Notes under the pieces: generated by a model
What the model was told of the DNA's origin: nothing
Database searches by the model: none
Seen by the model: the letters and a program-made list of their open reading frames with translations, nothing else
Position numbers and translations under genes: made by a program
Origin: Squalus acanthias
Lineage: Eukaryota
Direction of reading: 5' to 3'
Assembly: GCA_030390025.1 (NCBI GenBank)
Contig: JASTWF010000080.1
Location: 186,001 to 250,000, forward strand
DNA: 64,000 nucleotides
Shown here: positions 6,880 through 47,700 of the stretch, one piece after another
Position numbering within the stretch: position 1 is the stretch's first letter
How the letters are laid out: every line of letters starts with the position of its first letter

Positions 6880-7375
6880 ACCCTGAGTCCATCACCAGCC
6901 CCCCACCCTCATCAATTTAAACACTGAGTCCAACACCAGCCCCTCACCCTCATCAATTTAAACCCCCCGTCCAACACCAGCCCCTCACCCTCATCAATTT
7001 AAACCCTGAGTCCAACACCAGCCCCTCACCCTCATCAATTTAAACCCCCCGTCCAACACCAGCCCCTCACCCTCATCAATTTAAACCCCCTGTCCAACAC
7101 CAGCCCCTCACCCACATCAATTTAAACCCCCCGTCCAACACCAGCCCCTCACCCTCATCAATTTAAACCCTGAGTCCATCACCAGCCCCCCACCCTCATC
7201 AAATTAAACGCCCCGTCCAACACCAGCCCCTCACCTTCATCAAATTAAACCCCCCGTCCAACACCAGCCCCCCACCCTCATCAATTTAAACCCTGAGTCC
7301 AACACCAGCCCCTCACCCTCATCAATTTAAACCCCCCGTCCAACACCAGCCCCCCACCCTCATCAATTTAAACCA
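6880..7375. repeat. 41-bp minisatellite (tccaacaccagcccctcaccctcatcaatttaaacccc..)n
   Basis: About 12 tandem copies. Confidence 0.9.
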
Positions 7376-7749
7376 CCAGGCAGGTTGGGGATCCTTGTCT
7401 CTGTCTCACAGACTAAGTCTAACGCAGTCCGGGTCCTCATCGTGCGTCAGATCCTTTCCTCTGACTCCAGCCGTCGCTCTCCTCCTGGGCCCCTCTCTGA
7501 TGTTGGGTTTCTCACTCTGTTTGGGTGGCGTCCTTGCGGTTTTATCCCATCAGCTCTCGCTGCCCCGCCCCGTCAAACCGTCTTTACCCCCGCCTCCAAT
7601 ATTTTCAGAAATAATAAACACAAGTGTTGAATGAAAATAATCCTGGAGGTTTTGCGACCCTACTCTGGCTCCCTGCCCTCTCTCCATCTTGTCAATGAGA
7701 ATTCCACGAAGTCTTTCTAATCTCCCTCCCCCTTAACTTGCAGCACTGC

Positions 7750-8990
7750 ATTCCCTCAAGTCTAAGCCCAACATCATGATCAAACCCGTTGAGAAGTCGG
7801 CGCGGCTGTCGGTCAGCGACAGGACCTCCGACCTTCTGAGACCAAATGCCAACTCTGACAGCTCCTCCTACCTCCGTCTGGACCATGACCCCAAGCCATT
7901 ATTTCCCAGACTCTGACTGCTCTCATCTTTTGTGGTGACCTTTCCCACCATTGTCTTGAACCTCGCAGTACCCCAACTCCGCCGAACCCGCTTCTACCTC
8001 CTCCCCAAGATACACAACGATTCCCTGTCCCAGTTGTTTATTGTCCCACTGGACCAATTTCCTCCTATACTTTACATATTCTCTCCTTGTCCAGGCTCTA
8101 CCAAGCTACAATCGGTGACTACTCTGACACCTTCGTGCCACTTTAATGATCTGAGATTTTGCAGCCCCTACCATCATCTTTTCACTATGGATGTACAACC
8201 TCTCTGAACCTGCATCCATCACGAGTCGAGTCTAAATGTCCCATGCTTCTTTGAACAGCAGCTGAACCATTCCCATCCTCTTCTGAAGGACGTTGCAGAG
8301 ATAGAGAGGGGCGAAGCCATGGAGAGGTCTGAAAACAAGGATGAGAATTTTAAAATCGAGGCGTTGCTTAACCGGGAGCCAGTGTAGGTCAGCGAGCACA
8401 GGTGCGATGGATGAATGGGACTTGGTGCGAATTAGGACACGGGCAGCCGAGTTTTGGATGACCTCAAGTTTACGGACATGGGTCCTATCCATGTTTGTGT
8501 TTTTGGAGGATATGTTGAACACTGTTCCAGTCCTACCCAAACCCCCTCCCTGGGCTTTCATTACACGGACAACTGTGTGGTGCTGCTTCTTACTCTTGCT
8601 CCGATCTTGAGAGTTTAATTAACTATAATTCCAATTTTCACTCATCCCTCACCTTCACATGATCCATCTCTTCCCTTCCTGGATTATTCTGTCTCCTGTG
8701 ATGGGTTTTCCATTGACATCGATTGCAAGCCCACCAACTCCCACAACTACCTGGAGTATGCTCCTCCCCATCCCACATATTGTAAAGTCTCCATCCCTTT
8801 CTGTCCGTTTCTCCATCCCATCGGCTCTGATCACTCGCACCTTCTGCACCAGAGCATCTGAAATGTTCTCTTTTTTACCTCCGCCAAAGATGCCCCTCTG
8901 TTCCGGTCAACAGGTTCCTAAACCTTGTCTATTGCATTGCCTGACACTTTCCCCTTCCTCTCACAACTGTGATAGCATCCCCCTGACCAG
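7750..8990 (+). mobile_element. Decayed Penelope-like element RT remnant, interrupted by an L2 fragment (~8280-8475, -)
   Basis: RFYLLPKIH and LFTMDVQ motifs in ORF 7932, and a KPTNSHNYL-like motif near 8727. Confidence 0.65.
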
Positions 8991-9392
8991 TACCAGGACC
9001 ACTGCTTTTCTTGATATATATTAAAGACTTGCGGGGGGAGAAATTCAGTATCGCCCTGTTTGGGGTGCTAATATCGGCCGGGCGCAAAGTTTAGCACCCG
9101 GAGGTAATTATCGCCTCCGACTGTAAAATTCGCCTCTATCGCTCCTGGAGGTGATTGGAGCGCTAAATCAGGCGCTACACACCTCTCTTAAGGCGCTAAC
9201 GTCGAGGAGCGAGGCGCTACCTCAGAGCGCTGACGAAGCTCAGGTGATGTCAGTCAGCAATGGAACCCAGACAGACTGGTGCCGGCCAGTTCTTAAAGGG
9301 GAGGGTCCATCTTGCTCTCCAGCCACACCCTGCTCATTGTAGTGTTGACTCTGGTGCTGGAAAGACCTACCACCATTGCACTGAGAAGACTG

Positions 9393-11430
9393 ATGGATAG
9401 GCCCAGGGAGAGAGCTCAGCGCTTTAGCGACCAGGCCTTGGTGGCACTGGTTGGCACTGTCAAGTGGCGCCGGGCAGTGCTGTACCCAGAGAGTGGCAGG
9501 AGGCCATTGCCCCGGGAGTACTGAAGAGTCTGGAGGGAGGTGGCTCAGCACATCTCCTCGAGGAGTCTGGTGCCGAGGACCCACACCCAATGTCGGAAGA
9601 AGTTCAACGACCTCACTCGGGTGGTCAGGGTGAGTGGCTGCTTTTCAATACCTCTACATCCCTCCATCTCAACTTCACTCTGTGCCCAGAGGGTGTAAAA
9701 ACGCCAAAGGCCCAACACTCATCCCAGACCTATGGCCATCTCATAAAACACACACACGCACATTCCACACCTTGCATACATTAAGGGCTATTCAACTATG
9801 CGAGGCACATCAGGCAAGCACATGGCTGTATACATTAAGGGCTATTCAACTGTGGGAGGCACATCAGGCAAGCACATGGCTGCATACATTAAGGGCTATT
9901 TAACTATGGGAGGCACATCAGGCAAGCACATGGCTGCATACATTAAGGGCTATTCAACTATGGGAGGCACATCAGGCAAGCACATGGCTGCATACATTAA
10001 GGGCTATTCAACTATGGGAGGCACATCAGGCAAGCACATGGCTGCATACATAAAGGGCTATTCAACTATGGGAGGCACATCAGGCAAGCACATGTCTGCA
10101 TACATTAAGGGCTATTCAACTATGGAAGGCACATCAGGCAAGCACATGGCTGCATACATAAAGGGCTATTCAACTATGGGAGGCACATCAGGCAAGCACA
10201 TGGCTGCATACATTAAGGGCTATTCAACTATGGGAGGCACATCAGGCAAGCACATGGCTGCATACATTAAGGGCTATTCAACTATGGGAGGCACATCAGG
10301 CAAGCACATGGCTGCATACATAAAGGGCTATTCAACTATGGGAGGCATATCAGGCAAGCACATGGCTGCATACATAAAGGGCTATTCAACTATGGGAGGC
10401 ACATCAGGCAAGCACATGGCTGCATACATAAAGGGCTATTCAACTATGGGAGGCACATCAGGCAAGCACATGGCTGCATACATTAAGGGCTATTCAACTA
10501 TCGGAGGCACATCAGGCAAGCACATGGCTGCGCAGTCACTCAGACGTTGTCCTTTTTCTTGCAGGCCAAGCTCTCTCATAACAGGCGGGAGCAGCAACGC
10601 ACGGGAGGAGGACCGGCTGAACGACACACCCTCAGCGATTTGGAGGCGAGAGTGCACAGGATCGTTGCCAGCCAGGTCATAGGTGCCGTGACCACTGGAG
10701 ATGTTGACCCCCTTGGGGATAGCAATGGTATGTTCATCATCTCTCTCTCCTCTCTCATACCACTTGCCCCTCACAACACCAGCCTTTTACACTTTCAATC
10801 CAACTTACTAACTGTCTCCAGTCCTTGCTCCCTTACTGCCCCCCAGTCCTCACGCTAAAGCCACACTTTTACCTCCCTGCTTTCAGATAGTGAACCACCA
10901 GCTGACCAGCCTGTCCCTCAACCTGCCAGTGGCAGCGACGCCCCAGGCGAGGAGGAAGAGGAAGCCGGAACCTCACTGCCTGCGTCTCCCGAGGGAGCCC
11001 CTTCCGACACTGGGACCACGCCTTCCCTGGAGGGGAGCAGGGGGTTAGGGTCTGATGAGGGCAAAGCTCCTGGACCCAGCGGGCTGCAGCAACGCCATGG
11101 GGATAGGGAAGCTCGGGGGCCAGCTCCCCAGAGGGCGAGTAGGCAAACGAGTCCTGCTGCACAGGACGTAGATGAGGACCGCGCCATCGCGGCCATGAAT
11201 AGCCAGGCCTTGAGCATGCACACTGAGCTCATGGATGCAATGGCAAGGGTGCCTGAAAGCATGGATGGACTGGCAAGGAGTGTGGAGCAGTCCGCTGCAG
11301 CACAGGCCGATGCAACGCAACGGCTTAGTGCAGCAATTCGGTCATTGGCTGGTGCCACCCAGTCTCAGACTGCACTCATGCAGTCTCAGATTGATGTCAC
11401 GCAAGCACTGACTGCTGCCATCCTCGCTGG
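9393..11430 (+). pseudogene. Harbinger Myb/SANT-like DNA-binding protein (MSANTD4/NAIF1-like), spliced, with a premature stop
   Basis: Exon 9393-9629 reads MDRPRERAQRFSDQAL..VLYP..*RVWREVA..RTHTQCRKKFNDLTRVVR|gtgagt. The exon from 10565 reads AKLSHNRREQQRTGGGP. Confidence 0.8.
9775..10531. repeat. 54-bp minisatellite (~14 copies) in the intron of the Harbinger Myb gene
   Basis: Tandem ggctattcaactatgggaggcacatcaggcaagcacatggctgcatacattaag. Confidence 0.92.
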
Positions 11431-12164
11431 GTCGCCCACACAAACCTTTCCCCATCCCCCCACGCTGCATTTACTGTTTCCGATAAGTTCATCAAAATCC
11501 ATCCACCCCTGCTTTTAAAAACGGAGGAGGCTTGGGTTCGTTGTATCCCCTCTAAAACTTGCTTTTAACATCTGCCTGTTTTTATCAATCATTTTCTTCG
11601 GGATTGAAACGTGCACTTTCCCCTCCTTCATTCATTCATTCAGCTCACTGCCGACCGTTTCCTTCCCTTTCAATCTCTGCGTTCAGCGATCTTTGATCAC
11701 AACTTTCTTCGCTGTATCGCCGCTGACTTTTCTTTTGTTTTAAGAATCTGAACTTTGTCTCAAGAATTTATCTCAGCGAGAAAAAAGACACAACAGAGGA
11801 ACCAAGCCGAATAAAGGCCCATCTTTTATCTGTCAATCGGTTTTAGTTCTTGTTTCCCCAAAGTCCGGCTCCTGTTATTTTTTTCAATCCAATCGCTTGT
11901 TCTTTTCCCGGATTAAACAATCTCCCCTTTCATTTTCTTTCTCCCATTGTGTTTGCTCCTTCACTGCCGCCTGAGTGATTAACACAAGCAGCCTTTGCTG
12001 AGTTTGTGTTTGCATTGAGACGCGTCCATTAAACACAGTCGACCACAAATAAAATATATGTAGGGGGATAAAGACAGGGCGTAACCACTGGGACAAACAA
12101 TGCCAGATGCGGTATAGGAGCAGGAAATGAAATAGATTTAAAGCAAGGATAAAGCTGGGAAAAG

Positions 12165-12640
12165 GGGGAGACAAAAGTGAGAAGTCGCACAACACCAGGT
12201 TATAGTCCAACAGTTTTATTTGAAATCACAAGCTTTCGGAGCTGCTGCTCCTTCGTCAGGTGAAGTGAAGAAATACAAATCGGCACATCATATATAGACA
12301 GAGAACAATGTCTGTGCAGAGTACAATGCCAGACGACTACAGTTAATCTTTCTGACTGCCTTTTATCACACCTCGGCAGAGAGACAATCAGGTCAGTCAG
12401 GAAGACATTATATCAAAGACATAGCAAGATACAACTAAGACAATGAGGTGGGGTCACAGGGGGTCTAATGTGTCAAACGCTGCAGTCTGTATGGAAAACC
12501 ATAAACTTTAAACTTTTTACTTTTTTTACTGGAAATCACATCTGTGAACAAGCCAACGACGACTCGAGTCTGGATGACTCTACGTCAGGTGGGGTTACAT
12601 GTAGCGTGACATGAACCCAAGATCCCGGTTGAGGCCATGT
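12165..12640 (-). mobile_element. Penelope-like element 3' end: GIY-YIG C-terminus and pseudo-LTR with a minimal hammerhead ribozyme
   Basis: Minus strand reads GLNRDLGFMSRYM* near 12600-12636. CTGACGA-aggagc/gctcc-GAAA lies at 12234-12259, followed by AATAAA. Confidence 0.8.
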
Positions 12641-13770
12641 TTCTGTTGCAATGTTGCTGAATTTCTTGCTCCCCACTATCTCCTTGTTTACTGAACAGAC
12701 CATTTTACAGAAATACATCAAGCTGGCATAATTTACCATCATGCTTTGCTTCTCAGACTTGTGTCTTTTTAACTAAGGTTATACATATTATAACAGAGAT
12801 TTTATGCTTCTAACATACATTATTATATATATCGTACTAATTGTAAGAAAAGCATTACATTTAAAACATTATCAAATCATACAGATACGCTCTATTCTAC
12901 AGCCAGAGATGCGAACCCCAATGCTCGCTCAGTCTGACCGTTGTCATCACCTGCGAAGCTGATGTATCCACTTGCCCTGGCAAATAATGTATCGATGCAG
13001 GTGACCGGTGTATCAGGTCCAGCAGGTAGAAGGCCTTCCCCGAGGAGGCTGCGCAGGTCAGTGACCGCCTGCCGTGGCAGGTGGAGCCTCCAAAAAGCAC
13101 TGCTCCTCCGACAGGTCAAGGAAGCTGAGCCTCGGCCTGTAAAGGTGGCTGGGGCCTTCTCCCGAGCTCGGCCCCGCTGTTTCTGCCATCTCTGCTGCCC
13201 ACCTCCTTAGCACGCCGGTGCCCCTTGCCGATGGTGCTCCTCTTCCTCCTCTTCAGCTATAGCAGCACCCGTCACCAACTCCACCTTCTGTAAGTGCAGA
13301 GTATCAAATGATTTGAAAAATACATACAGAACCGTTTGCTCGTTATATTGGGGGACAGCAGTCAGTTTCTTAGCAATTTTAAAAAAATGCACATCTGAAA
13401 GCTTGTAAATGTAATATTAGTGTCCTTACGCCCAAGAGAACCAGCTTAATTTTTAGAGCTTCCTCAAAGGCCCGTTAACGAGAGCAATTAGTGGAAACTG
13501 GCGGTGGAGATTAGTTCGATCTGGGGGCGGGCTGGCTTCTAGCACGATGTTTTTAAACTAGCGCAAAAGATGCTGGACGTAAGTTGCGCTTACAATTCTG
13601 CTATCCTTTGCGGCGATTACGCCGATTTCAGGCGAATTACACCGAAGAATCCAGAGCAACCGAGCAGAAACTCTACCCCAATGTGTTGACTGTGAGGGGG
13701 GAGCCCGGGATCTCAGTGTCTCCTCCCTTTACACTGGAGCTGGTGTCCCAGGCTGGTTCAGTCTCTCTCT

Positions 13771-13986
13771 AGTTTCTGTTTCACAGGCTGACTCTCAACC
13801 TGCCTGAGTTTGATCCTCCCAGTAACTGGTGACAGGCGACTGTTTATCCCTTTAATTGGGTATTTTTCTCAGAGTAACCAATCAGTCACCCTCTGGCTCT
13901 GCTCTTTTGATCAAAGCTCGAGATAAACAGTAAAGTGGAGCCTGGATTGACTTGCTGTTTATTTGGGGTATTTTTCAGTCTATAAA
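13771..13986 (+). promoter_or_regulatory. MHC class I-type promoter: ISRE, S-X-Y enhanceosome, CCAAT, TATA
   Basis: ISRE AGTTTCTGTTTC 13771-82; S box CAACCT 13796-801; X1/X2 CCCAGTAACTGGTGACAG from 13818; Y box ATTGG 13855-59; CCAAT 13878-82; TATAAA 13981-86. S-X (~16 bp) and X-Y (~20 bp) spacings are canonical. Confidence 0.8.
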
Positions 13987-14057: not shown

Positions 14058-14109
14058 ATGCTGGTGATCCTTTTCTCCACATCCCTGTGTTTTTCCTGGG
14101 TCTCTCCCA
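14058..14109 (+). CDS. MHC class I-like gene, leader exon (MLVILFSTSLCFSWVSP)
   Basis: Hydrophobic signal peptide just downstream of the SXY promoter, with a phase-1 donor a|gtaagt. Confidence 0.85.
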
Positions 14110-14248
14110 GTAAGTACAGAACTCATCCCTCAATTCTCACTCTCACTCTTTCTCTCTCTTTACACTCTGTCTCTTTCTCTCTGCACTCTCTCTGTTTCTC
14201 TCTCTGTCTCTCTCTCACTCTCTCTACACTCTCTCTGCACTCTCTGTC

Positions 14249-14675
14249 NNNNNNNNNNNNNNNNNNNNNNNNNNNNNNNNNNNNNNNNNNNNNNNNNNNN
14301 NNNNNNNNNNNNNNNNNNNNNNNNNNNNNNNNNNNNNNNNNNNNNNNNNNNNNNNNNNNNNNNNNNNNNNNNNNNNNNNTCTCTACACTGTAATATATGT
14401 GGGTAGAACAAAATGAAGGACAGAGACAGATGAGTTGCTGGTCCAGGAGCTTGCTTTACTAGGCTAGAGCGAACTGAGCATGCTCATACTAAACCATGTG
14501 ACAAACCATGTGATAATATATNNNNNNNNNNNNNNNNNNNNNNNNNNNNNNNNNNNNNNNNNNNNNNNNNNNNNNNNNNNNNNNNNNNNNNNNNNNNNNN
14601 NNNNNNNNNNNNNNNNNNNNNNNNNNNNNNNNNNNNNNNNNNNNNNNNNNNNNNNNNNNNNNNNNNNNNNNNNNN
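14249..14675. other. Two N-runs (14249-14379, 131 nt; 14522-14675, 154 nt) within CT-rich microsatellite
   Basis: Seen directly. Confidence 0.99.
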
Positions 14676-14919
14676 CTCTGTCACTGTGTGTCTGTCTCTC
14701 TACACTCTGTCTCTCTTTCCCTGGTGCAATGATATTAACAGAGGACTTCCTTTGAGCTGAGCTGAGTAAAAGTGAACATGAGAATACCTACTGCTCACAA
14801 ACGGTGTGAGAATGTGGACTCCCTGTTCTAACCAAGTTCATTGGGGTGTGTAACAAGGAGATAGATGTTTACATGGGAATAATGGCATTAAGGAATACGG
14901 ATAAAGAGCAGGGAATCGA

Positions 14920-16315
14920 GATTCTATCTAATCGTAGCCGGAGAATCACCTGCAATGGCTCCTCTTCCCGCTCCCGCATCGTTACCTCTGGTGTCCCCCA
15001 AGGATCCATCCTTGGCCCCCTCCTATTTCTCATCTACCTGCTGCCCCTTGGTGACATCATCCGAAAACACAGCGTCAGTTTCCACATGTACGCTGACGAC
15101 ACCCAGCTCTACCTCACTACCTCTTCTCTCAACCCCTCCACAGTCTCTAAATTGTCAGATGCTTGTCCGACATACAGTTCTGGATGAGCAGAAATTTTCT
15201 CCAATTAAAATTGGGAAGACCGAAGCCATTGCTTTCGGTCCCTGCCACTAATTCCGTTCCCTAGCCATGACTCCACTCCTCTCCCTAACATCTGTCTGAG
15301 GCTGGACCACACTGTTCACAACCTTCGTGTCGTATTTGACCCTGAAATGAGCTTCCGACCACATATCCGCATCATAACTAAGACCGCCTATTTCCACCTC
15401 CGTAACATCGCCCGTCTCCGCCCTTTCCTCAGCTCATCCACTGCTGAAATCCTCATCCATGCCTTTGTTACCTCTAGACTTGACTATTCCAATGTACTCC
15501 TGGCCGGCCTCCCACATTCCACCCTACGTAAACTTGAGGTCATCCAAAACTCGGCTGCCCGTGTCCTAACTCGCACCAAGTCCCGTTCACCCATCTCCCC
15601 TGTGCTCGCTGACCTACTTTGGCTCCCAGTTAAGCAACGCCTCGATTTCAAAATTCTCATCCTTGTTTGCAAATCCCTCCCTGGCCTCGCCCTCCCTATC
15701 TCTGTAATCTCCTCCAGCCCCACAACCCCCTGAGATATCTGCGCTCCTCTAACTCTGCCCTCTTGAGCATCCCTGATTATGATGCGGAGATGCCGGTGTT
15801 GGACTGGGGTGGACAAAAATGAGAAGTCGCACAACACCAGGTTATAGTCCAACAGTTTTATTTGAAATCACAAGCTTTCGGAGCTGCTGCTCCTTCGTCG
15901 TTCTCTATCTATATATGCTTTGGCGATTCTGTATCTCTTTACTTCACCCGACAAAGGCGCAGCAGCTCCGAAAGCTTGTGATTTCAAATAAAACTGTTGG
16001 ACTCTAACCTGGTGTTGTGCGACTTCTCATTTTTATCCCTGATTATAATCGCTCAACCATTGGTGACCGGGCCTTCTGTTGCCTCGGCCCAAAGCTCTGG
16101 AATTCTTGCCTAAACCTCTCCACCTCTCTACCTCTCTTTCCTCCTTTAAGACGCTCCTTAAAACCTAACTCTTTGACCAAGATTTTGGTCACCTGCCCTA
16201 ATTTCTCCTTATGTGGCTCGGTGTCAAATTTTTTGTCTTATAATATTCCTGTGAAGCGCCTTGGGATGTTTTACTACGTTAATGGCGCTATACAAATACA
16301 AGTTGTTGTTGTTGT
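14920..16315 (+). mobile_element. L2 LINE 3' part with (GTT)n tail
   Basis: [23 protein letters not shown] and FVTSRLDYSN motifs. Ends gcgctatacaaatacaagttgttgttgttg. Confidence 0.9.
15781..16034. mobile_element. Penelope pseudo-LTR inverted-repeat insertion with a 12-bp TSD, inside the L2
   Basis: TSD atccctgattat at 15769-80 and 16035-46. The two arms are reverse complements. Confidence 0.85.
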
Positions 16316-16769
16316 TAGAGATACAGCGACCATGGCAACAGAAAATGGCAGTGCCGACTGGATAGGCCATTGGTCGACTTCTGTTCCTCTGTTCCTACTA
16401 TGTATCTACCTGCTAACTGTTAGCTCTTTAACTGACGGTCAGTTTTTCACCCCATTCATTCACTTGCCAGTGTTTTACAAAGAAATCTGCATTTTTACTG
16501 GGGATTGGAGACAAACAGGCGCCTCTTTCTTCCATCGTTTGTTGCCCGCAAGGTTTTAAATGAGCCGTTGCTTTCGGAGAGTCCCAGTTACAGTTGGTTG
16601 TTTAATGTTTGATCCTAAAAGAAATTAGATGGAACGAATAAGCAGCTTCCAGAAACATTGGCCCAGAAATCAGTCTCGATGGGTGGGGGCAAAACGGGCG
16701 GTATTGGATCGGCTGCGCTCGCGCCTGATGTTCAGTTCCATTGCAGTCAGTGTAACTGAATATCAGACA

Positions 16770-17775
16770 CTGCAGTAAAGGAGCCTCTGGGGAAGAGTGA
16801 CCATAATATGATAGAATTTTAAATTGAGTATGAGAGGATTTAGTTAAGTCTGAAACTAAGGTCTTAAATCTGAACTAAGCAAACATAGTAGATATGAGAG
16901 GCACGTTGGCTAAAGTAGATTGGGAAACTAGATTAAAAGATAGTTGCTAGATAAGCAATGCAAAACTTTTGAAGAAATAACTCATAATTCACTACAAAGA
17001 TACATTCCCTTAAGGAATAAAAATCCCACAGGAAAATGGTCCAACCATGGCTAACAAGAGAATTTCAAGATAGTATTGTGATAATGACCAGATAATCTGT
17101 TTTGTTATAAGAGTAAAGATGTCTTATTGCAATTATATAGAGCCCTGGTGAGACCACACCCGGAGTCTTGTGTACAGTTTTGGTTTTCTTACCTAAGGAA
17201 GGATATACTTGCCTTGGAGGGAGTGCAACGAAGGTTCACTAGACTGATTCCTGGGATGGGAGGATTGTCCTATGAGGAGAGAGAGAGTAGAAATTAGAAA
17301 TTTACGGCACAGAAGGAGGCCATTCAGCCCATTGTATATGGACTAGGCCTATATTCCCTAGAGTTTGGAAGAATGAGAGGTGATCTCCTTGAAGCATATA
17401 AAATTCTTAAGGGGCTTGACAGGGTAGATGCAGGGAGGATCTTTCCCTGGGCTGGGGAGTTTAGAATTAGGGGTCACAGTCTCAGAATAAGGGGTCGGTC
17501 ATTTAGGACCGAGATGAGGAGAAATTTCTTCACTCAGAGGGTGGTGAATCTTTGGAAGTCTCTACCCCAGAGGGCTGTGGATGTTCAGTCGTTGAGTATA
17601 TTTAAGACAGAACGATAGCTTTTTGGATATTAAGGGAACCAAGCGCTATGGGGATAATGTGGGAAAGTGGAGTTGAGGTATAAGATCTGCCATGATCTTA
17701 TTGAATGGCGGAGCAGGCTCAAAGAGCCGACAGGCCTACTCCTGCTCCTATTTCTTACGTTCTTATGTTTTTATG
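16770..17775 (+). mobile_element. CR1 LINE fragments including a 3' end
   Basis: MRGDLLEAYKILKG..RNFFTQRVVNLW and a ttcttatgt tail. Confidence 0.85.
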
Positions 17776-17866
17776 TTCTGATCTAACTTCACAGATCTAT
17801 GAAACCGTTCTCCCATTCCATTCGGTGTCTGTCTACTGTTTGTGTTTTCTCCCTTTCCCCTCTCAG

Positions 17867-18145
17867 TTCAGCCCGAAGTGTTCATCTCCAGAAGTGACCC
17901 CAATAGTCAGGACAAACCGCCCACTCTCTCCTGCCTGGTTACTGGATTTTACCCTGTAGACATCGAGGTGACCTGGCTAAGGAATGGAGAGCCAGTGTCT
18001 GAGAGCCACTCCTCGGGGGTTCGACCGAACCACAATGGGACCCATCAGATCAAGAAAGAGATTGAAGTGAATGCTGGGTATGAGGATCAATACTCCTGTC
18101 AAATTGAACACAGCAGCCTGGCAGAGGCAAAGGTCTATCGGTGGG
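17867..18145 (+). CDS. MHC class I-like alpha3 (IgC1-set) exon
   Basis: QPEVFIS..LSCLVTGFYPVDIEVTWLRNG..VRPNHNGTHQI..YSCQIEHSSL..W. Polypyrimidine acceptor ..tctcag, phase 1-1, 279 nt, donor g|gtaagg. Confidence 0.93.
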
Positions 18146-20794: not shown

Positions 20795-20908
20795 AAATAC
20801 CGGAAAACAGTGGTGCACGCTCCCATCATGGAATTATAATTGGAACAGTCGCTGCACTGGTTATAATCGGGATAATCGGAATATTCATCTGGATAAAACA
20901 ACGGAGAG
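20795..20908 (+). CDS. MHC class I-like connecting peptide/transmembrane exon (EIPENSGARSHHGIIIGTVAALVIIGIIGIFIWIKQRR)
   Basis: Acceptor tgtgtttcag, a hydrophobic helix plus basic stop-transfer, and phase-1 donor g|gtaaga, in frame with alpha3. Confidence 0.9.
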
Positions 20909-20917
20909 GTAAGAATC

Positions 20918-21805
20918 AGAGAGAAGGGAATGTAGAACTGAGGGACAGAGTGAGTGTGGGGAATCTCCAGTACTGGGAGCACAGGGCACTGAGAGGAGAG
21001 AGTGAGAGAGAGGAATGTAGAACTGAGGGACAGAGTGAGTGTGGGGAATCTCCAGTACTGGGAGCACAGGGCACTGAGAGGAGAGAGTGAGAGAGAGGAA
21101 TGTAGAACTGAGGGACAGAGTGAGTGTGGGGAACCTCCAGTACTGGGAGCACAGGGCACTGAGAGGAGAGAGTGAGAGAGAGGAATGTAGAACTGAGGGA
21201 CAGAGTGAGTGTGGGGAACCTCCAGTACTGGGAGCACAGGGCACTGAGAGGAGAGAGTGAGAGAGAGGAATGTAGAACTGAGGGACAGAGTGATTGTGGG
21301 GAATCTCCAGTACTGGGAGCACAGGGCACTGAGAGGAGAGAGTGAGAGAGAGGAATGTATAACTGAGGGACAGAGTGAGTGTGGGGAATCTCCAGTACTG
21401 GGAGCACAGGGCACTGAGAGGAGAGAGTGAGAGAGAGGAATGTAGAACTGAGGGACAGAGTGAGTGTGGGGAATCTCCAGTACTGGGAGCACAGGGCACT
21501 GAGAGGAGAGAGTGAGAGAGAGGAATATAGAACTGAGGGACAGAGTGAGTGTGAGGAATCTCCAGTACTGGGAGCACAGGGCACTGAGAGGAGAGAGTGA
21601 GAGAGAGGAATGTAGAACTGAGGGACAGAGTGAGTGCGGGGAATCTCCAGTACTGGGAGCACAGGGCACTGAGAGGAGAGAGTGAGAGAGAGGAATGTAG
21701 AACTGAGGGACAGAGTGAGTGTGGGGAATCTCCAGTATGGGAGCACAGGGCACTGAGAGGAGAGAGTGAGAGAGAGGAATGTAGAACTGAGGGACAGAGT
21801 GAGTA
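20918..21805. repeat. 85-bp minisatellite (~10 copies) immediately after the TM donor
   Basis: agggacagagtgagtgtggggaatctccagtactggg... recurs at 20941, 21026, 21111 and onward. Confidence 0.93.
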
Positions 21806-21899
21806 CACACTCTCCGATCCTCACACTGGGTGTGTGCTCACACTCTGATAATGGGTTATCCCCATTCTAACTGACATTTATCACACTCTGCGTTACTCA

Positions 21900-24800
21900 C
21901 ACCAATCCCGCGCCCTCCAGTCCCTCAAACTCCAGTCCCTCAAACTCCCGTCCCTCAAACTCCCGTCCCTCAAACTCCCGTCCCTCAAACTCCAATCCCT
22001 CAAACTCCAATCCCTCGCCCTCCAGTCCCTCACCCTCCAGTCCCTCGCCCTCCAGTCCCTCAAACTCCAGTCCCTCAAACTCCAGTCCCTCAAACTCCAA
22101 TCCCTCGCCCTCCAATCGCTCGCCCGCCAGTCACTCGCCCTCCAGTCCCTCAAACTCCAGTCCCTCAAACTCCAATCCCTCGCCCTCCAATCCCTCGCCC
22201 TCCAGTCCCTCGCCCTCCAGTCCCTCAAACTCCAGTCCCTCAAACTCCAGTCCCTCAAACTCCAATCCATCGCCCTCCAATCCCTCGTCCGCCAGTCCCT
22301 CGCCCTCCAGTCCCTCACCCTCCAGTCCCTCGCCCTCCAGTCCCTCGCCCTCGAGTCCCTCGCCCTCCAGTCCCTCCCCTTCCAGTCCCTCCCCTTCCAG
22401 TCCCTCACCCTGCACTCCCCCTCCGCTCCCTCACCCTCCAGTCCATTGTCCTCCAGTCCCGCACCCTCCATTCCCTCACCCTACAGTCCCTTTTCCTCCA
22501 ATTCCTCACCCTCCAGTCCCTTGTCCTCCAGTCCCTCGCGTTCCAGTCCCTCGCCCTCCAGTCCCTCCCCCTCCAGTCCTTCGCCCTCCAGTCCCTCGCC
22601 CTGCAGTCCCTCGCCATCCAGTCCCTTGCTCTCCAGTCCCTCCCCCTCCAGTCCCTCGCCCTCCACTCCTCGTCCTCCAGTCCCTCGCCCTCCAGTCCCT
22701 CGCCCTCCAGTCCCTCACCCTCCTGTCCCTCACCCTCCAGTCCCTGGCCCTCCAGTCCCTCTCCCTCCAGCCCCTCCCCCGTCCAGTCCTTCGCCTTCCA
22801 GTCCATCGTCTCCAGCCCCTCGCCTCCAGTCCCTCGTCCTCCAGTCCTCGCCTTCCAGTCCCTCGCCCTCCAGTCCCTCCCCCTCCAGTCCCTCCCCCTC
22901 CAGTCCCTCCCCCTCCAGTCCCTCCCCCTCCAGTCCCTCGCCCTCCAGTCCCTCACCCTCAAGTCCCTTGTCCTCCAGTCCCTCGCCCTCCAGTCCCTCA
23001 CCCTCCAGACCCTCATCCTCCAGTCCCTCAGCCTCCAGTCCTTCGCCTTCCAGACCCTCACCCTCCAGTCCCTCGTCCTCCAGTCCCTCTCCCTCCAGTC
23101 CCTCCCCTCCGGTCCCTTGTCCTCCAGTCCCTCCCCCTCCAGCACCTCTCCATCCAGCCCCTCCCCCTCCAGTCCCTCACCCTGCACTCCCCCTCCGCTC
23201 CCTCACCCTCCAGTCCATTGTCCTCCAGTCCCTCACCCTCCATTCCCTCACCCTACAGTCCCTTTTCCTCCAATTCCTCACCCTCCAGTCCCTTGTCCTC
23301 CAGTCCCTCGCGTTCCAGTCCCTCGCCCTCCAGTCCCTCCCCCTCCAGTCCTTCGCCCTCCAGTCCCTCGCCCTGCAGTCCCTCGCCATCCAGTCCTTCG
23401 CCCTCCAGTCCCTCGCTCTCCAGTCCCTCGCCCTCCAGTCCCTTGCTCTCCAGTCCCTCCCCCTCCAGTCCCTCGCCCTCCACTCCCTCGTCCTCCAGTC
23501 CCTCACCCTCCAGTCCCTCGCCCTCCAGTCCCTCACCCTCCTGTCCCTCACCCTCCAGTCCCTGGCCCTCCAGTCCCTCTCCCTCCAGCCCCTCCCCGTC
23601 CAGTCCTTCGCCTTCCAGTCCATCGTCCTCCAGCCCCTCGCCCTCCAGTCCCTCGTCCTCCAGTCCCTCGCCTTCCAGTCCCTCGCCCTCCAGTCCCTCC
23701 CCCTCCAGTCCCTCCCCCTCCAGTCCCTCCCCCTCCAGTCCCTCCCCCTCCAGTCCCTCGCCCTCCAGTCCCTCACCCTCCAGTCCCTCGTCCTCCAGTC
23801 CCTCGCCCTCCAGTCCCTCACCCTCCAGACCCTCATCCTCCAGTCCCTCAGCCTCCAGTCCTTCGCCTTCCAGACCCTCACCCTCCAGTCCCTCGTCCTC
23901 CAGTCCCTCTCCCTCCAGTCCCTCCCCCTCCGGTCCCTTGTCCTCCAGTCCCTCCCCCTCCAGCACCTCTCCATCCAGCCCCTCCCCCTCCAGTCCCTCG
24001 CCCTCCAGTCCCTCGCCCTCCAGACCCTCACCCTCCAGACCCTCACCCTCCAGTCCCTGGCCCTCCAGTCCCTGGCCCTCCAGCCCCTCCCCCTCCAGTC
24101 CCTCCCCCTCCAGTCCCTCGCCCTCCACTCCCTCACCCTCCAGTCCCTCACCCTCGAGCCCCTCCACCTCCAGTCACTCCCCCTCCAGACCCTCCCCCTC
24201 CAGTCCCTCCCCCTCCAGTCCCTCGTCCTCCAGTCTCTCGCCCTCCAGTCGCTCGCCCTCCAGTCCCTCGCCTTCCAGTGCCTCGCCTTCCAGTCCCTCG
24301 CCCTCCATTCTCTCGCCCTCCAGTCCCTCGCCCTCCAGTCCCTCGTCCTCCAATCCCTCGCCCTCCAGTCCCTCGCCCTCGACTCCCTCGCCCTCCACTC
24401 CCTCGCCCTCCACTCCCTCGCCCTCCAGTCCCTCGTCCTCCAGTCCCTCGCCCTCCAGTCCCTCGCCCTCCAGTCCCTCCCCCTCCAGTCCCTCGTCCTC
24501 CAGTCCCTCGCCCTCCAGTACCTCGCCCTCCAGTCCCTCGCCCTCCATCCCCTCACCCTCCACTCCCTCGCCCTCCAGTCCCTCCCCCTCCAGTCCCTCC
24601 CGCTCCAATCCCTCCCCTTCCAGTCCCTCGCCCTCCAGTCCCTCGTCCTCCAGCCCCTCGCCCTCCAGTCCCTCGCCCTCCAGCCCCTCGCCCTCCAGCC
24701 ACTCGCCCTCCAGTCCCTCGCCCTCCAGTCCCTCGCCCTCCAGTCCCTCGCCCTCCAGCCCCTCGCCCTCCACTCGCTCACCCTCCAGTCCCTCGTCCTC

Positions 24801-27800
24801 CAGTCCCTCGCCCGCCAGCCCCTCGCCCTCCACTCACTCGCCCTCCAGTCCCTCGTCCTCCAGTCCCTCACCTTCCAGTCCCTCCCCCTCCAGTCCCTCG
24901 CCCTCCAGTCCCTCGCCCTCCAGTCCCTCACCCTCCTGCCCCTCCCCCTCCAGTCCCTCACCCTCCAGCCCCTTGCCCTCCTGCCCCTCCCCCTCCAGTC
25001 CCTCACCCTCCAGTCCCTCGTCATCCAGTCCCTCGCCCTCCAGTCCCTCACCCTCCAGTCCCTCGCCCTCCTGCCCATCCCCCTCCAGTCCCTCCCCCTC
25101 CAGTCCCTCGCGCTCCAGTCCCTCGTCCTCCAGTCGCTCGACCTCCAGACCCTCGCCCTCCAGCCCCTCGCCCTCCAATCCCTCGCCCTCCAGTCCCTCG
25201 CCCTCCTGCCCCTCCCCCTCCAGTCCCTCGTCCTCCAGTCTCTCGCCCTCCAGTCTCTCGCCCTCCAGTCCCTCCCCCTCCTGCCCCTCGCCCTCCAGGC
25301 TCTCGCCCTCCAGTCCCTCGCCCTCCAGCCACTTGCCCTCCCGCCACTCGCCCTCCAGTCCCTCCCCCTCCAGTCCGTCCCCCTCCAGTCCCTCGCCCTC
25401 CAGTCCCTCGCCCTCCAGTCTCTCGCCCTCCAGTCCCTCCCCCTCCAGTCCATCCCCCTCCAGTCCCTCGCCCTCCACTCCCTCACCCTCCAGTCCCTCC
25501 CCCTCCAGCTCCTCCCCCTCCTGTCCCTCCCCCTCCAGTCCCTCGCTCTCCAGTCCCTCGCCCTCCTGCCCCTCCCCCACCAGTCCCTCACCCTCCAGTC
25601 CCTCGCCCTCCTTCCCTCGCCCTCCAGCCCCTTGCTCTCCACTCCCTCCCCCTCCAGTCCCTCGCCCTCCAGTCCATCGCCCTCCACTCCCTCGCCCTCC
25701 AGTCCATCGCCCTCCAGTCCCTCGCCCTCCAGTCCCTCCCCCTCCAATCCCTCCCCCTCCAGTCCCTCGCCCTGCAGACCCTTGCCCTCCAGTCCCTCGC
25801 CCTCCAGACCCTCGCCCTCCAGTCCCTTGCCCTCCAGTCCCTCCCCCTCCAGTCCCTTGCCCTTCAATCCCTCACCCTCCAGTCTCAAGTCCTCCAGTCC
25901 CTCGCCCTCCAGTCCTTCGCCCTCCAGTCCCTCGTCCTCCAGTCCCTCCTTCTCTAGTCCCTCACCTTCCAGTCCCTCGCCCTCCAGTCCCTCGCTCTCC
26001 AGTCCCTCGCCTTCCAGTCGCTCGCCCTCCAGTCACTCGCCCTCCAGTCCCTCGCTCTCCAGTCCATCGCCCTCCAGTCCCTCCCCCTCCAGTCCATCGC
26101 CTTCCAGTCCCTCGCCTTCCAGTCCCTCGCCTTCCAGTCCCTCGCCCTCCAGTCCCTCGTCCTCAAGTCCCTCGCCCTCCAGTCCCTCGCCCTCCAGTCC
26201 CTCGCCCTCCAGTGCCTCCCCCTCCAGTCCCTCCCCCTCCAGTCCCTCCCGCTCCAATCCCTCCCCCTCCAGTCCCTCGCCCTCCACTCCCTCGCCCTCC
26301 AGTCCCTCCCGCTCCAGTCCCTCCCCCTCCAGTCCCTCGCCCTCCAGTCCCTCGTCCTCCAGCCCCTCGCCCTCCAGTCCCTCGCCCTCCAGTCCCTCGT
26401 CCTCCAGTCCCTCGCCCTCCAGTCCCTCGCCCTCCAGTCCCTCGCCCTCCAGCCCCTCGCCCTCCACTCCCTCACCCTCCAGTCCCTCATCCTCCAGTCC
26501 CTCGCCTGCCAGCCCTCGCCCTCCACTCCCTCGCCCTCCAGTCCCTCCCCCTCCAGTCCCTCGCCCTCCAGTCCCTCGCCCACCAGTCCCTCGCCCTCCT
26601 GCCCCTCCCCTCCAGTCCCTCGCTTTCCAGCCCCTCGCCCTCCTGCCCCCTCCCCCTCCAGTCCCTCACCCTCCAGTCCCTCGTCCTCCAGTCCCTCGCC
26701 CTCCAGTCCCTCGCTCTCCAGTCCCTCGCCCACCAGTCCCTCCCCCTCCAGTCCCTCGCCCTCCACTCCCCTCGCCCCTCCACTCCCTCACCCTCCAGTC
26801 CCTCCCCCTCCAGCCCCTCCCCCTCCAGTCCCTCCCCCTCCAGTCCCTCGCCCTCCAGTCCCAGGCCTCCAGCCCCTCGCCTTTCCTGCCCCTCCCCCAC
26901 AGTCCCTCGCCCTCCAGTCCCTCGCCCTCCAGTCCCTCACCCTCCAGCCCCTCGCTCTCCACTCCCTCGCCCTCCACTCCATCGCCCACCAGTCCCTCGC
27001 CCTCCAGTCCCTCGCCCTCCAGTCCCTCGTCCTCCAGTCCCTCGTCCTCCAGTCCCTCACCCTCCAGTCCCTCCCCCTCCAATCCCTCCCCCTCCAGTCC
27101 CTCGCCCTGCAGACCCTCGCCCTCCAGTCCCTCGCCCTCCAGACCCTTGCCCTCCAGCCACTCGCCCTCCAGTCCCTCGCCCTCCAGTCCCTCCCCCTCC
27201 AGTCTCTCGCCCTCCAATCCCTCACCCTCCAGTCTCAAGTCCTCCAGTCCCTCGCCCTCCAGTCCTTCGCCCTCCAGTCCCTCGTCCTCCAGTCCCTCCT
27301 TCTCCAGTCCCTCACCTTCCAGTCCCTCGCCCTCCAGTCCCTCGCCCTCCAGTCCCTCGCCTTCCAGTCCCTCGCCCTCCAGTCCCTCGCCCTCCAGTCC
27401 CTTGCTCTCCAGTCCATCGCCCTCCAGTCCCTCCCGTCCCTCCCCCTCCAGTCCATCGCCTTCCAGTCCCTCGCCTTCCAGTCCCTCGCCCTCCAGTCCC
27501 TCCCCCTCCAGTCTCTCGCCTTCCAGTCCCTCGCCCTCCAGTCCCTCCCACTCCAGTCTCTCGCCTTCCAGTCCCTCGCCTTCCAGTCTCTCGCCCTCCA
27601 GTCCCTCACCCACCAGTCCCTCCCCCTCCAGTCCCTCCCCCTCCAGTCCCTCGCTTTCCAGTCCCTCGCCCTCCAGTCCCTCCCCATCCAGTCCCTCGTC
27701 CTCCAGTCCCTCGCCCTCCAGTCCCTCGCCCTCCAGTCCCTCGCCCTCCAGTCCCTCGCCTTCCAGTCCCTCGCCTTCCAGACCCTCGCCCTGCAGTCTC

Positions 27801-28580
27801 TCGCCCTCCAGTCCCTCACCCTCCAGTCTCTCGCCTTCCAGTCCATCGCCCTCCAGTCCCTCCCCCTCCAGTCCCTCCACCTCCAGGCCCTCCCTCTCCA
27901 GTCCCTCCCCCTCCAGTCCCTCGCCCTCCAGTCCCTCGCCCTCCTGTCCCTCGCCCTCCAGTCCCTCGCCCTCCAGTCTCTCGCCTTCCAGTCCCTCGCC
28001 TTCCAGTCCCTCGCCTTCCAGTCCCTCGCCCTCCAGTCTCTCGCCCTCCAGTCCCTCGCCCTCCAGTCTCTCGCCTTCCAGTCCATCACCCTCCAGTCCC
28101 TCCCCCTCCAGTCTCTTGCCCTCCAGTCCCTCCCCCTCCAGTCCCTCGCCCTCCAGCCCCTCCCCCTCCAGTCCCTCGCCCTCCAGTCCCTCGTCCTCCA
28201 GTCCCTCGCCCTCCAGTCCCTCGCCCTCCAGTCCCTCGCCCTCCAGTCCCTCGCCTTCCAGTCCCTCGCCCTCCAGTCCCTCGCCCTCCAGTCTCTCCCC
28301 CTCCAGTTTCTCACCCACCAGTCCCTCACCCTCCAGTTCCTCGCCCTCCAGTCCCTCGCCCTCCAGTCCCCCCTCCAGTCCCTCGCCCTCCAGTCCCCCC
28401 TCCAGTCCCTCGCCCTCCAGTCCCCCCTCCAGTCCCTCGCCCTCCAGTTCCTCGCCCTCCAGTCCCTCGCCCTCCAGTCCCCCCTCCAGTCCCTCGCCCT
28501 CCAGTCCCCCCTCCAGTCCCTCGCCCTCCAGTCCCCCCTCCAGTCCCTCGCCCTCCAGTCCCCCCTCCAGTCCCTCGCCA
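21900..28580. repeat. 6.7-kb 15-bp minisatellite (ccctccagtccctcg)n
   Basis: More than 400 diverged units. All long ORFs here are low-complexity translations. Confidence 0.97.
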
Positions 28581-30507: not shown

Positions 30508-30638
30508 GAAATTGAAACTGAACCAGATAGAAGCCATTTCGGGGAAACAGAAACTTCCTGTAGCATTTGCAGCTTGTAAATCAACCAAGATATTCACCCC
30601 GAAAGCTCAGTTTCTGCTCCGTCACTGCAACGTGAAAG
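30508..30638 (+). promoter_or_regulatory. Interferon-responsive promoter and putative first exon, copy 1
   Basis: ISRE GAAATTGAAACT 30508-19; GAS TTTCGGGGAAA 30537-47 overlapping ISRE GAAACAGAAACT 30544-55; donor AAG|GTGAGT at 30638/9. Confidence 0.75.
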
Positions 30639-31223: not shown

Positions 31224-31336
31224 AAGAAAGAGACCGGCGCTGCGTCTATCCTCTCCCGGTACCCAGAGTAGGACAGCAGGGGATTCTCATCGCCGTCTTC
31301 GACACGGGAGTGGATCCCGGAGCACAAGGACTCCAG
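31224..31336 (+). pseudogene. TPP2: TPP2 (tripeptidyl peptidase II) exon-1 fragment, copy 1
   Basis: [37 protein letters not shown]|gtaatg, compared with remembered human [38 protein letters not shown]. Carries a 1-nt frameshift. Confidence 0.85.
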
Positions 31337-32876: not shown

Positions 32877-32938
32877 ACAGTGCTGTATCTGTAGAGAGAG
32901 AGAGAGAGACCAGAACTAAAATCGTTAATGCTGTATCT

Positions 32939-32971
<33 letters not shown>

Positions 32972-35609: not shown

Positions 35610-35648
<39 letters not shown>

Positions 35649-43920: not shown

Positions 43921-44725
43921 TTGAGTAAGTGAGGGAAAGGCTGGCAGTTGAGGAATGGCACAGGAGAGCTGAGGTAAGAGCTGTGGTGGCATCAGTTTGT
44001 TAAAGTGAAGGAAGGGTTTTTGGGATGTATGAGCAAAAATACACACCGAGCACGGACAAAAATACACACAGCAACAGACAGCTCACACCAACATACAGAC
44101 AAACACATATGGGTGGGATTGGAGGTCGTGGTATTGGGTAGTTTACCCCTCCCTTTACCCCTCACTGGTCCTAGTGTAGCACTGAGGGGAGTGTTGTGGG
44201 TGTGGAGAATCTCCCATTCTTAGACCCTGGAGGTCATGATCTTGGGCCCAGAAAGGGTGGGAAATCAGAGTCTGGGAGCTTTGAGGTCGGGGGTCAGGGT
44301 TCGTAGAGGTCTGGGATCAAGGCCGAGGGGGAATTCGGAGATAGATTGTTGGGGATCTTGAGGCCAGGAGAATAACCGGAGCATCCCAAGCCTGGAAGAC
44401 GGGAATGGCCCACAGTAAAGACCAGAGTTGTCACAGGCTCGGTGTGTAACATGCACTTTAAAAGTATTCACAAATAAAGCTCCTTACTCTTGTCCTTAGA
44501 AACATATAAAGCAGGAAACCCACAGCAAGCATTTCATATGAATGCTGGGAAAGGACATCAAACCGGTGATTCCAAGTTTTACAAAATACAGTTTAAATTA
44601 TTGGCCTATTAATGGCCAGAGTTACATTTTTCTCAAATATTGTGTGGTTTACCAGTTTAATGTGTTCATTAGTTTCCCCACAGCCATTTCCGGAGACCGA
44701 ACTCACTCTCCATCACCCGGAAGCC

Positions 44726-47700
44726 ATGGATAATAATGTGGAACTGGAGCCGACTGACTCCGACCGACAGCTCGAAACGGAGCCTTTAGGGAGAGGGTCA
44801 CAGCCCGGACCAAGTCCACCTGACCCAGTGGAAGGTAACAAAACCACAACTGCACAAGCACAGAGTTCAGGACAGAGACACAGTTCAATTTTTGCAAACA
44901 ACGATTCTGATGCAAAGACAGTAAAACGCACTCCAGGCAACGGTATTAGAAAACTCTTAACCGAATTGGGGTTAGAAAGTAAGAAGTTGACCCTGAGCGA
45001 TGTGCTCACCATAAGCACAGAAACACTTCAAAATAAGTCACCTGATTCACCTCAAGATATTCCAGGATATTTTCTTCGGAATTTAATGATGGTCAATTCA
45101 GAGGCAAGAATCTTGAAATACAATCCAACTGCGGCACAAAATCAGTCAGAATCGGATAACTTGGATTTTCTCTGTCTGGATAAAACCGGTGAAGGTTTGT
45201 ACCATCCCTTGGATATCATCGTGGCGATTTTCCTGCGTGCTGAGCCGTTCCTCCAGCAGGAGTTGATGTTGAAGATGTCCCTGTGCCAGTTCGCATTGCC
45301 ACTATTGCTGCCTGCTGATAACCAGGGCTGCACCTTCCTACTCTGGGCCCTGCGCTCCATTGTGAAGACCTGGCGGCCGCGCTCACTCCAAGAAAGTGCC
45401 AGTTTTAAGGAAACAAACATGGTGACCGTCAGCATGCCGACCTGTTCCTTCATTCGACTCGGTTCCTGTTCCATCTCCAAATCTAAGGTTCTAAACGAGG
45501 TCCTCAGCACCTCAGAGCAACACCACAACTTCTTCATCCATTGCGATATGGAGTATGGCGATTTACCACCAAAGATTTCTGACGGCCTGGTCGAGTTGTG
45601 CTGGTACCTGCCCAGCGGGAGTGAGAGGTCGGACCTCTTCCCGGAGCCAATGGCGATATTAAACCTCCGAGGTGACGCTAAAGAGTTCCACACACAGCTT
45701 CAATTTCTGGCAGACGTCTCTTCAGCTCTTTTTATTTTTATTGATAAAGTTGACAGCGGTTTAAGCAAGACCCTGGAGTCCCTCGCCCAGTCTCCAGTGA
45801 GTACATTCATAGTGCTTACTGGGAGCAGTGTGAGCAGTGAGACACAAGGACACTTGAAGCACTTCATTACTTCCTCAGTGTTTAAGAAAAATCAAATCTT
45901 ATTCCGAGGAACGAGAAACAGCGCACAGTTTACTGAGACACTGCGATCCACATTGAACACTGCACTGAAAACAACCCTGGAACCGACAACTGTATCTAAG
46001 CGCAGGAAGACTAGCCGGGGCCCCCAGAGTTTGGAGCAACTGGCGGCAATTGCAAGGGGCTTGGGAATGGAAGTAGATGAGGATGACCAGATGTGTTCAG
46101 AAGGCAAAGCAAGGGCAGCAAACATTAATAATCGTATTAATGGAGAGGAAATCAGCCAATACAAATTGGAAAATATGTCTTTTCAGGGTTCGACTTGGCA
46201 ACAGGTTTCCAAAATAGAAAAAGAAAAATGTCGTCCAAAACAGCGAGAGGACAAGTCTACACACAAATACTGTAATGACCTGGAAGAAGAGAAGAAAAAA
46301 CTTCGAAACGAGCAAGGAAAGAAAGGTGTATCGGCTGATATGAAAAGCTTCATTACAGCTCTGACAGACAGGGAGGAGAGGAAACACTTCCTGCAGTGGC
46401 TGAAATGCGGGTTGGATTCCAGATCCAGAGACACTCTCTCTGGTTTACGTGGAGATTACAAAGCTCTGTATGAGAAATCTCAGCCACAGTCAACAAAGCA
46501 GAAAGACTCCACAATCGACAACAAACAGCTACAGGAATTAGACCAAAGGATAACTGCCAGCTCCCTTGGACTCGAACATTTCATGCGAGAAATCGGGCTG
46601 ATCTACGAAACATTGATAAACCAGAATAATGGGAACAAGGAAGAGGAATGCATGGTGGAAAAGTTACCCCGCACTGCCGCTGATCTGATGTTGGACGGGT
46701 TCCCTCTGGAGCTCATCGATGGCGATGTTTCCAACATCCCTTTACGGTGGATCACTGATGTACTGAAGGCAGTTGAAGACAAGATTGGCAGAGAGACCCG
46801 TGTGTTTGTGCTGACGGTGCTGGGTGTGCAGAGCACGGGCAAGTCCACGCTTCTCAACACCATGTTCGGTTTGCAGTTCGCTGTGAGTTGTGGTCGGTGC
46901 ACCCGCGGGGCCTTCATGCAGCTCATTAAGATTACAGAAGATCTGCAGATCGAGCTGGGCTGTGGGTACATCATGGTGATTGACACCGAGGGGCTGAAAG
47001 CACCGGAACTCTCGACCATCGACAACAGCTATGAACATGACAACGAGCTCGCCACCCTGGTGATCGGGTTAAGCGATGTAACATTGGTCAACATGGCCAT
47101 GGAAAACTCCACAGAGATGAAGGACGTGCTGCAGATAGCGGTCCATGCATTGATACGAATGAAAGAAGTGGGGAAAAGGCCAGCTTGTTACTTTGTCCAC
47201 CAGAATGTGAGCGACGTTTCTGCTCATGATCAGAATATCAGAGGCCGCAATCATCTGCTGGAACAGTTGGATGTGATGACACAAGCAGCGGCTAAAATGG
47301 AAAAACAAGATCAGCGGTTCACCAAGTTCTCTGATGTGTTGGAGTACGATGCGATGGTGAGTAACTGGAACATCCCAGGCCTGTGGCACGGGAATCCGCC
47401 CATGGCAGCAGTCAATACCGGCTACAGTCACAAGGTGTTTGAGCTGAAAAAAAGGCTTTTCAGGGATCTGAAAGAGAAGAGACATCAAGGGAGAATGTCA
47501 ACCATCCCTGAGTTTAGCAAGTGGACTAAATCTCTGTGGACCGCGGTGAAATATGAAAATTTCATCTTCAGTTTCCGGAACAGTCTGGTAGCTGAAGCTT
47601 ACAAGGAACTTTCTGTCAAATACACCGACCTGGAGTGGGAACTGCGGAAAGAAATCCATTCCTTCCTGGAAAAGGCACAGAACATAATTTTTAATGACAA

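Follow-up and report, generated by a model that had tools for sequence, protein, structure and literature searches.

A shark class I-like gene copy with both groove exons deleted lies upstream of a GVIN GTPase gene

In human, HLA fragments represent the class I fragments and pseudogenes of birth-and-death clusters. The UEA lineage is multicopy, present in sharks, and not known from rays or chimaeras. This nonclassical shark class I lineage was reportedly described by Almeida et al. in 2021 in J Immunol. In two papers (PMC10751288, PMC12562908), UEA is an expanded shark lineage, and a review (PMC13106471) presents an HLA-G isoform without alpha1 and alpha2 that an intact gene produces by splicing. 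The only groove-less precedent that literature searches turned up was this HLA-G splice form, the other result being an unrelated wallaby paper; the original UEA supplements may include truncated copies.

The window, by which we mean the whole 64-kb stretch of DNA analyzed (G000:C3663:186001-250000), belongs to a 1.44-Mb scaffold carrying a class I-like cluster; features given by window position lie on the + strand. A leader exon (14058..14109; 52 nt, 17 codons plus 1 nt, phase 1) of a leader family also seen in shark class I proteins of the database was separated by an intron with GT and AG borders at exactly 14110..17866 from an alpha3 exon encoding a C1-set Ig domain (17867..18145; 279 nt, phase 1; Pfam C1-set E 2e-19). 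The connecting peptide and TM segment occupied a further phase 1 exon (20795..20908; hydropathy 3.0 over 19 aa). Translation confirmed the initial annotation's in-frame leader-alpha3-TM splice: with canonical splice sites and phase 1 throughout, the three exons gave an open 148-codon frame with no stop. The copy has the leader, C1-set alpha3 and TM of a class I gene on separate phase 1 exons and lacks the alpha1 and alpha2 groove domains. No stop or frameshift was found in its remaining exons, a pseudogene test that is uninformative at this age. Both cysteines and the core tryptophan of alpha3 were kept, and a private D-to-Y change was present. The two N runs of the leader-to-alpha3 intron measured 131 and 154 nt, as reported earlier; the labels L2 and CR1 given to parts of this intron are presumptive, being drawn from translated fragments and known family features without a repeat library. 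Upstream of the leader, motifs that we take to be an ISRE (13771-13782), X box (13818-13833), Y box (13855-13859), CCAAT (13878-13882) and TATA (13980-13986) were all located by motif position, in keeping with the complete promoter already proposed. They aligned with those in 10 other copies, so that the putative X/Y module and ISRE of a class I gene match those of the intact copies.

In an alpha3 tree of the kind suggested in the initial annotation, the window alpha3 fell in one clade (support 96/92) holding the 10 family copies and 9 database shark proteins, apart from 11 other class I alpha3 sequences of the same genome. Its identity to the database shark proteins was 69-83/92. Compared by eye, 77/92 were identical to nurse shark Gcirratum_UCA_NODE_26056, and in the part of supplementary file 10 of PMC10751288 that was available the nearest entry was UCA_NODE_26056 and not the dogfish UCA. 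The multicopy and shark-restricted character of UEA was reproduced in the 10 alpha3 copies and in the 12 proteins obtained with alpha1 of an intact copy as query, 12/12 of them from sharks in a search of limited sensitivity. Nine of these 12 are the database proteins of the clade above. Judged from these sequences, the family is probably the shark UEA lineage, the label UCA_NODE_26056 being presumptively equated with UEA. A W-category beta chain was considered and dropped, since the family from which the leader and alpha3 come has complete alpha1 and alpha2. Elsewhere in the genome, approximately 14 class I-like copies (G000:C26:32.7-38.4 Mb; L014 and others) had an alpha3 that by eye resembles the UGA entry in the available part of the supplement; UGA is called single or low copy in a review, unlike the ~14 copies on C26.

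A genome search recovered 10 alpha3 copies with 93-100% identity, all on the scaffold of the window, together with 10 TM copies and 11 promoter-leader copies of the family. Exon mapping revealed leader, alpha1, alpha2, alpha3 and TM in 7/10 copies, and no alpha1 or alpha2 in the other three, namely the window copy, one copy at 337 kb (the twin) and one at 696 kb of the scaffold. The introns of the 337-kb and 696-kb copies contained zero N and had the same two deletion junctions. When alpha1 and alpha2 of the intact copies were run by tblastn against the 64-kb window, nothing was found (best E 0.52); the same search, which had been proposed for paralogous loci, was equally blank for all three groove-less units (best E 0.52), and an intact-copy control gave E 1e-52. 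Four queries were used, one of which was read in the wrong frame and was hence weaker. None of the 50 matches listed in a PF00129 genome search fell inside the window. The groove exons are absent from the DNA, as first claimed: the shared junctions in 3/10 mapped copies, the blank tblastn and the positive control demonstrate a real germline deletion of both groove exons in these copies.

The limits of the deletion were placed by comparison with a sister copy at 525 kb that bears a groove. The remnant of intron 1 (14110..14716), consisting of a CT microsatellite and a 142-nt unique block and holding both N runs, was common to the window copy and the sister up to 14716. In the sister, alpha1 starts ~145 bp past the point matching 14716, downstream of both N runs. 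A CR1-type insertion is shared from 16771 onward; in the sister its start lies 70 bp past the alpha2 donor and a short near-duplication flanks it, and it is absent from six plain intact copies. Relative to the sister, the deletion starts after 14716 and ends at 16771, within this repeat inserted in intron 3. Alpha1, intron 2 and alpha2 are replaced by a 2-kb filler (14717..16770) of retroelement fragments, a 251-nt private insertion and ~350 nt of unique sequence; it had no match in the sister copy, tblastn found no degenerate groove exons in it, and the unique stretch at 16300-16775 was matched at full length only in the three groove-less copies. The 3' remnant of the CR1-type element in intron 3 (16771..17772) was ~98% shared with the sister, and the native last part of intron 3, which includes the alpha3 acceptor (17773..17866), was 98-99% identical in all copies. 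The 251-nt insertion (15784-16034) has inverted ends and occurs only in the window copy among the three groove-less ones. The sister itself (G000:C3663:524854-579703) is of a distinct alpha1/alpha2 type; its intron 2 spans 46 kb, and arginine takes the place of its core alpha3 tryptophan.

Homology among the three groove-less copies starts at window 6887, the upstream part of the segmental duplicate spanning 6887..13770. The flanks beyond 6887 are unrelated, showing that the copies are paralogs; for the same reason, a haplotype duplication was ruled out as the origin of the twin. The two N runs inside the intron and further gaps elsewhere on the scaffold might suggest that groove exons are hidden in under-sized gaps, an alternative raised in the initial annotation, or that the locus is misassembled. 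This is exceedingly unlikely, however, given two N-free paralogs with the same two junctions, in which the stretches matching the N runs are 81-88% pyrimidine simple repeat, flanks that mark the copies as paralogs and not haplotypes, and a sister alpha1 that maps past both N runs. Since both N runs sit upstream of 14716, they cannot hold the groove exons.

In four intact copies, a stop-bearing short cytoplasmic exon follows a minisatellite. This exon is missing from the window copy, the twin and the sister, which run into repeats and GVIN-cluster DNA; in the window, the copy's own cytoplasmic exon is missing after the 85-bp and 15-bp minisatellite arrays (20917..28580). Two groove-bearing copies (G000:C3663:19285 and 70317) also had no stop-bearing cytoplasmic exon in the DNA stretch examined. 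Farther downstream, at 29039-37800, there were four tandem copies of a dispersed repeat with at least 41 matches, at 78-86%, elsewhere. A peptide in this repeat presumably resembles the start of tripeptidyl peptidase II (TPP2) and gave no Pfam or PDB match; a TPP2-like promoter as the driver of GVIN was dropped, the peptide being part of a dispersed repeat.

The next compatible exons after TM were those of a full GVIN gene, 24 kb further. They comprised a 66-nt phase 1-1 exon of the GVIN unit (44500..44565), which serves as the class I cytoplasmic exon in database models of other sharks, and the GVIN coding exon (44673..49729), with two acceptors 11 nt apart (44673 and 44684), its own ATG at 44726 and a 1667-aa frame that is a full family member (Pfam URGCP, URGCP_GTPase). 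Use of acceptor 44684 would add a 16-aa tail and then a stop, giving a single-Ig protein of 164 or 186 aa; use of 44673 would give an in-frame Ig-TM-GVIN chimera of 1833 or 1855 aa. The earlier suggestion of a membrane-anchor fusion with GVIN is accordingly borne out in part, an in-frame link being possible via 44673 and not via 44684; a direct TM-to-44684 splice was rejected as a fusion, being out of frame. The short class I frame ends in a stop that lies over the start codon of GVIN (44726-44733); the overlap follows from the M-D-N codons of GVIN and may be incidental.

GVIN sequence on the same strand follows downstream of each of the three groove-less copies. Only in the window unit is the route through the nearest acceptor into a full-length GVIN open: the nearest nine GVIN starts are truncated at the twin, and the GVIN frame of the 696-kb unit ends early, at 1035 aa. 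Downstream of the twin, at G000:C3663:287000-312400, nine tandem truncated GVIN 5' ends are followed by one full GVIN. The remnant may have been co-opted as a GVIN front end, its class I promoter, with ISRE and X/Y module, driving the downstream GVIN, a reading we regard as rather unlikely. A message spliced via 44673 would encode a type I membrane chimera with a signal peptide, one Ig domain, a TM and a cytosolic GTPase; one spliced via 44684 would carry a short Ig-TM frame stopping on the GVIN start codon. The open in-frame path and the position of 3/3 groove-less copies upstream of GVIN on the same strand are in its favor. However, the path is broken in 2/3 units, and GVIN has its own ATG in strong context and does not need an anchor.

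Contigs of six runs were compared, with RNA status assumed, as no run was recorded as RNA. Rare forms are lost in contigs and the deletion may be absent from the animals concerned, so that a blank does not argue for silence. The letters of intact copies were seen in the leader contigs from X1 and X2 and in the alpha3 contigs from X1, X2, X3 and X19, and the four listed alpha3 contigs had 45-476 unlike letters upstream. A 14109-17867 joint was not among the 15 joints listed for X1, X2, X3 and X19 (190 further; repeats dominant). Spliced contigs joined alpha3 to TM in X3 and a distant exon to GVIN in X4. Among contigs, which cannot prove absence, no TM-GVIN junction was recovered, no joint from 44565 was listed for GVIN, and the window copy's letters at 44701/44703 did not occur. 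GVIN contigs began at 44671-44672, and one in X4 joined there from a phase 1 exon of another gene. Its loose end had exactly one match in G000, the end of a phase 1 exon at C3663:623606, in a gene with stonustoxin-like, fn3 and septin/AIG1-type GTPase domains; no copy of this partner exon lies within the window. In spliced RNA, the GVIN family does use acceptor 44673, with a different partner. This use speaks for the GVIN front end, but the X4 partner exon belongs to another gene with no copy in the window. The 1136-codon frame of that gene (G000:C3663:620400-623800; L078, L095), coding for stonustoxin-like, fn3 and septin/AIG1-type GTPase regions, is joined by splicing to the GVIN acceptor in X4, which points to a double-GTPase chimera; copies of related exons occur at 360, 438, 907 and 1020 kb.

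GVIN pieces with 0 mismatches to the window copy (398, 142, 114, 102 and 76 nt) occurred in 4/4 runs from 2 studies, and all other GVIN copies compared from G000 differed from the identical piece at 8-14 of 398. Because the pieces are exact and the other copies differ, the window GVIN copy or its allele is likely transcribed. These exact pieces are also consistent with a GVIN driven from the class I remnant.

Among database proteins, 6/48 class I-like entries (Pristiophorus, Mustelus and Cetorhinus) ended in these GVIN exons, as did two further protein representatives; a seventh protein first counted among them was discarded as a spurious TM match. The Pristiophorus models used the downstream acceptor and those of Mustelus and Cetorhinus the upstream one. 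All are predicted, all keep alpha1, and none has the GTPase body, the chimeras ending within ~100 residues of the GVIN start. Eight models (P0004, P0143, P0144, P0011, P0147, P0012, P0174, P0178) show full or alpha2-skipped class I with ends from the GVIN locus (44500-44733), some of them in frame with the GVIN N-terminus. A class I-to-GVIN splice link thus recurs in gene models from several shark orders, and these models point to a possibly old link in sharks; titles-level literature searches found no published report of one. The models that end in GVIN exons (6/48 plus two representatives) support co-option as a GVIN front end, although they are computer models ending within ~100 residues of the start of GVIN, and no C1-set or MHC_I domain was listed on the best 120 of 398 GVIN homologs. 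By blastp, a GVIN match was present in 1/150 alpha3 representatives. Four turtle models (P0066, P0077, P0089, P0115) have Ig V and C domains fused to GVIN, three of them with leader and TM. It is improbable, if conceivable, that an old class I-GVIN splice link here produced an interferon-responsive type I membrane GTPase in which a class I signal peptide, a single alpha3 Ig domain and a TM anchor precede the full 1667-aa cytosolic GVIN, the groove being discarded.

The introns of four related copies differed by only 0.7-2.3%, and the deletion is a recent one, at 1-2% divergence. A neutral 445-nt frame of that age would stay free of disabling changes with a probability of 0.42-0.65, and, every class I exon being phase 1, whole-exon deletion keeps the frame. 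The earlier reading of the intact frame as a sign of a functional product is not supported, such a frame being automatic and expected by chance in 40-65% of cases. Changes found only in the window copy and the twin, or only in the groove-less copies, mostly altered an amino acid, with one silent; they included L-to-V and I-to-T in the leader, G-to-A at donor -1 and the D-to-Y in alpha3, at a site that is D or N in 50/50 homologs. The core Ig tryptophan, W in 50/50 matched database alpha3 domains, was lost in the 696-kb copy and in the sister, and in the 696-kb copy the stretch separating the X box from the Y box had shrunk by 17 bp. Between the window copy and its twin there were 0/445 differences in exons and 124/10384 (1.19%) outside exons, a contrast with an empirical P of ~0.02 that was chosen post hoc in a region of patchy divergence. 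Exon changes toward the window copy were mostly amino-acid changing before the last duplication, and there were none after it.

A selected stand-alone membrane protein with a single Ig domain (164 or 186 aa), serving as decoy or as ligand toward beta2m, CD8 or a receptor that binds alpha3, would fit the signal peptide, intact C1-set core and TM, the identical exons of window copy and twin, and the human precedent by splicing in the alpha1/alpha2-deleted HLA-G, described in the review PMC13106471. Such a protein is unlikely here, however, being limited to three young copies of one genome, one of them without the core tryptophan, and occurring in none of the database family members. The class I groove floor supplies part of the beta2m contact, and with the floor absent, beta2m binding should be weak. 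Alpha3 directly after a leader was seen in 0/37 leader-bearing family members and 0/10 short homologs.

With moderate confidence, we favor a young truncated duplicate without a selected protein function. We infer the following order of events. The gene at the end of the cluster would first have received the CR1-type insertion in its intron 3, and a junction with GVIN-cluster DNA would have cost it its last exon, a state kept by the sister. A deletion from the intron 1 microsatellite into the CR1-type insertion would then have removed both groove exons, leaving the block now present in three copies, each upstream of GVIN sequence. The frame would have survived automatically, all class I exons being phase 1. 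The retained promoter would be expected to give a leader-alpha3-TM transcript which, for want of a last exon, would be joined by splicing to the GVIN exons 24 kb away, its Ig-TM product being a probable passenger of GVIN-cluster duplication.

The truncated duplicate is preferred because the mapped breakpoints are common to 3/10 copies and an intermediate sister exists, because introns 0.7-2.3% apart go with a neutral frame survival of 0.42-0.65, because the 696-kb copy is decaying and the twin's nearest nine GVIN starts are truncated, because private changes are mostly amino-acid changing, and because a leader-on-alpha3 protein is absent (0/37 and 0/10 homologs). Against it stand the 0/445 exon differences between window copy and twin at 1.19% outside, the intact promoter motifs, splice sites, cysteines and tryptophan of the window copy, and the window unit's open path into a full GVIN with exact GVIN pieces in 4/4 runs. 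As a truncated duplicate, the locus would be an unusually clean stepwise record of class I gene death and reshuffling, with every intermediate of insertion, junction, deletion and duplication on one scaffold. If the chimera is expressed, a class I remnant would supply the promoter and membrane anchor of an innate immune GTPase.

Compared with the UEA lineage, the locus is alike in alpha3 identity, multicopy cluster and shark-only alpha1 homologs (12/12) and unlike in that the window copy is without alpha1, alpha2 and its own last exon. It shares with the very large GTPases of the GVIN/VLIG type a 1667-aa full member whose acceptor takes phase 1 upstream exons, whereas among the best 120 of 398 homologs none was listed as a full-length member fused to class I; the turtle Ig-GVIN models form an unrelated, independent parallel to a shark Ig-anchored GVIN. 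With the HLA-G isoform it shares a predicted architecture of leader, alpha3, TM and short tail, but in the window the groove exons are lost at the DNA level and a GVIN locus would supply the tail. Like the HLA fragments, it is a partial duplicate in an expanding cluster with repeat-associated breakpoints and decaying siblings; unlike them, the window copy keeps promoter motifs, splice sites, an open frame and an in-frame route into another gene.
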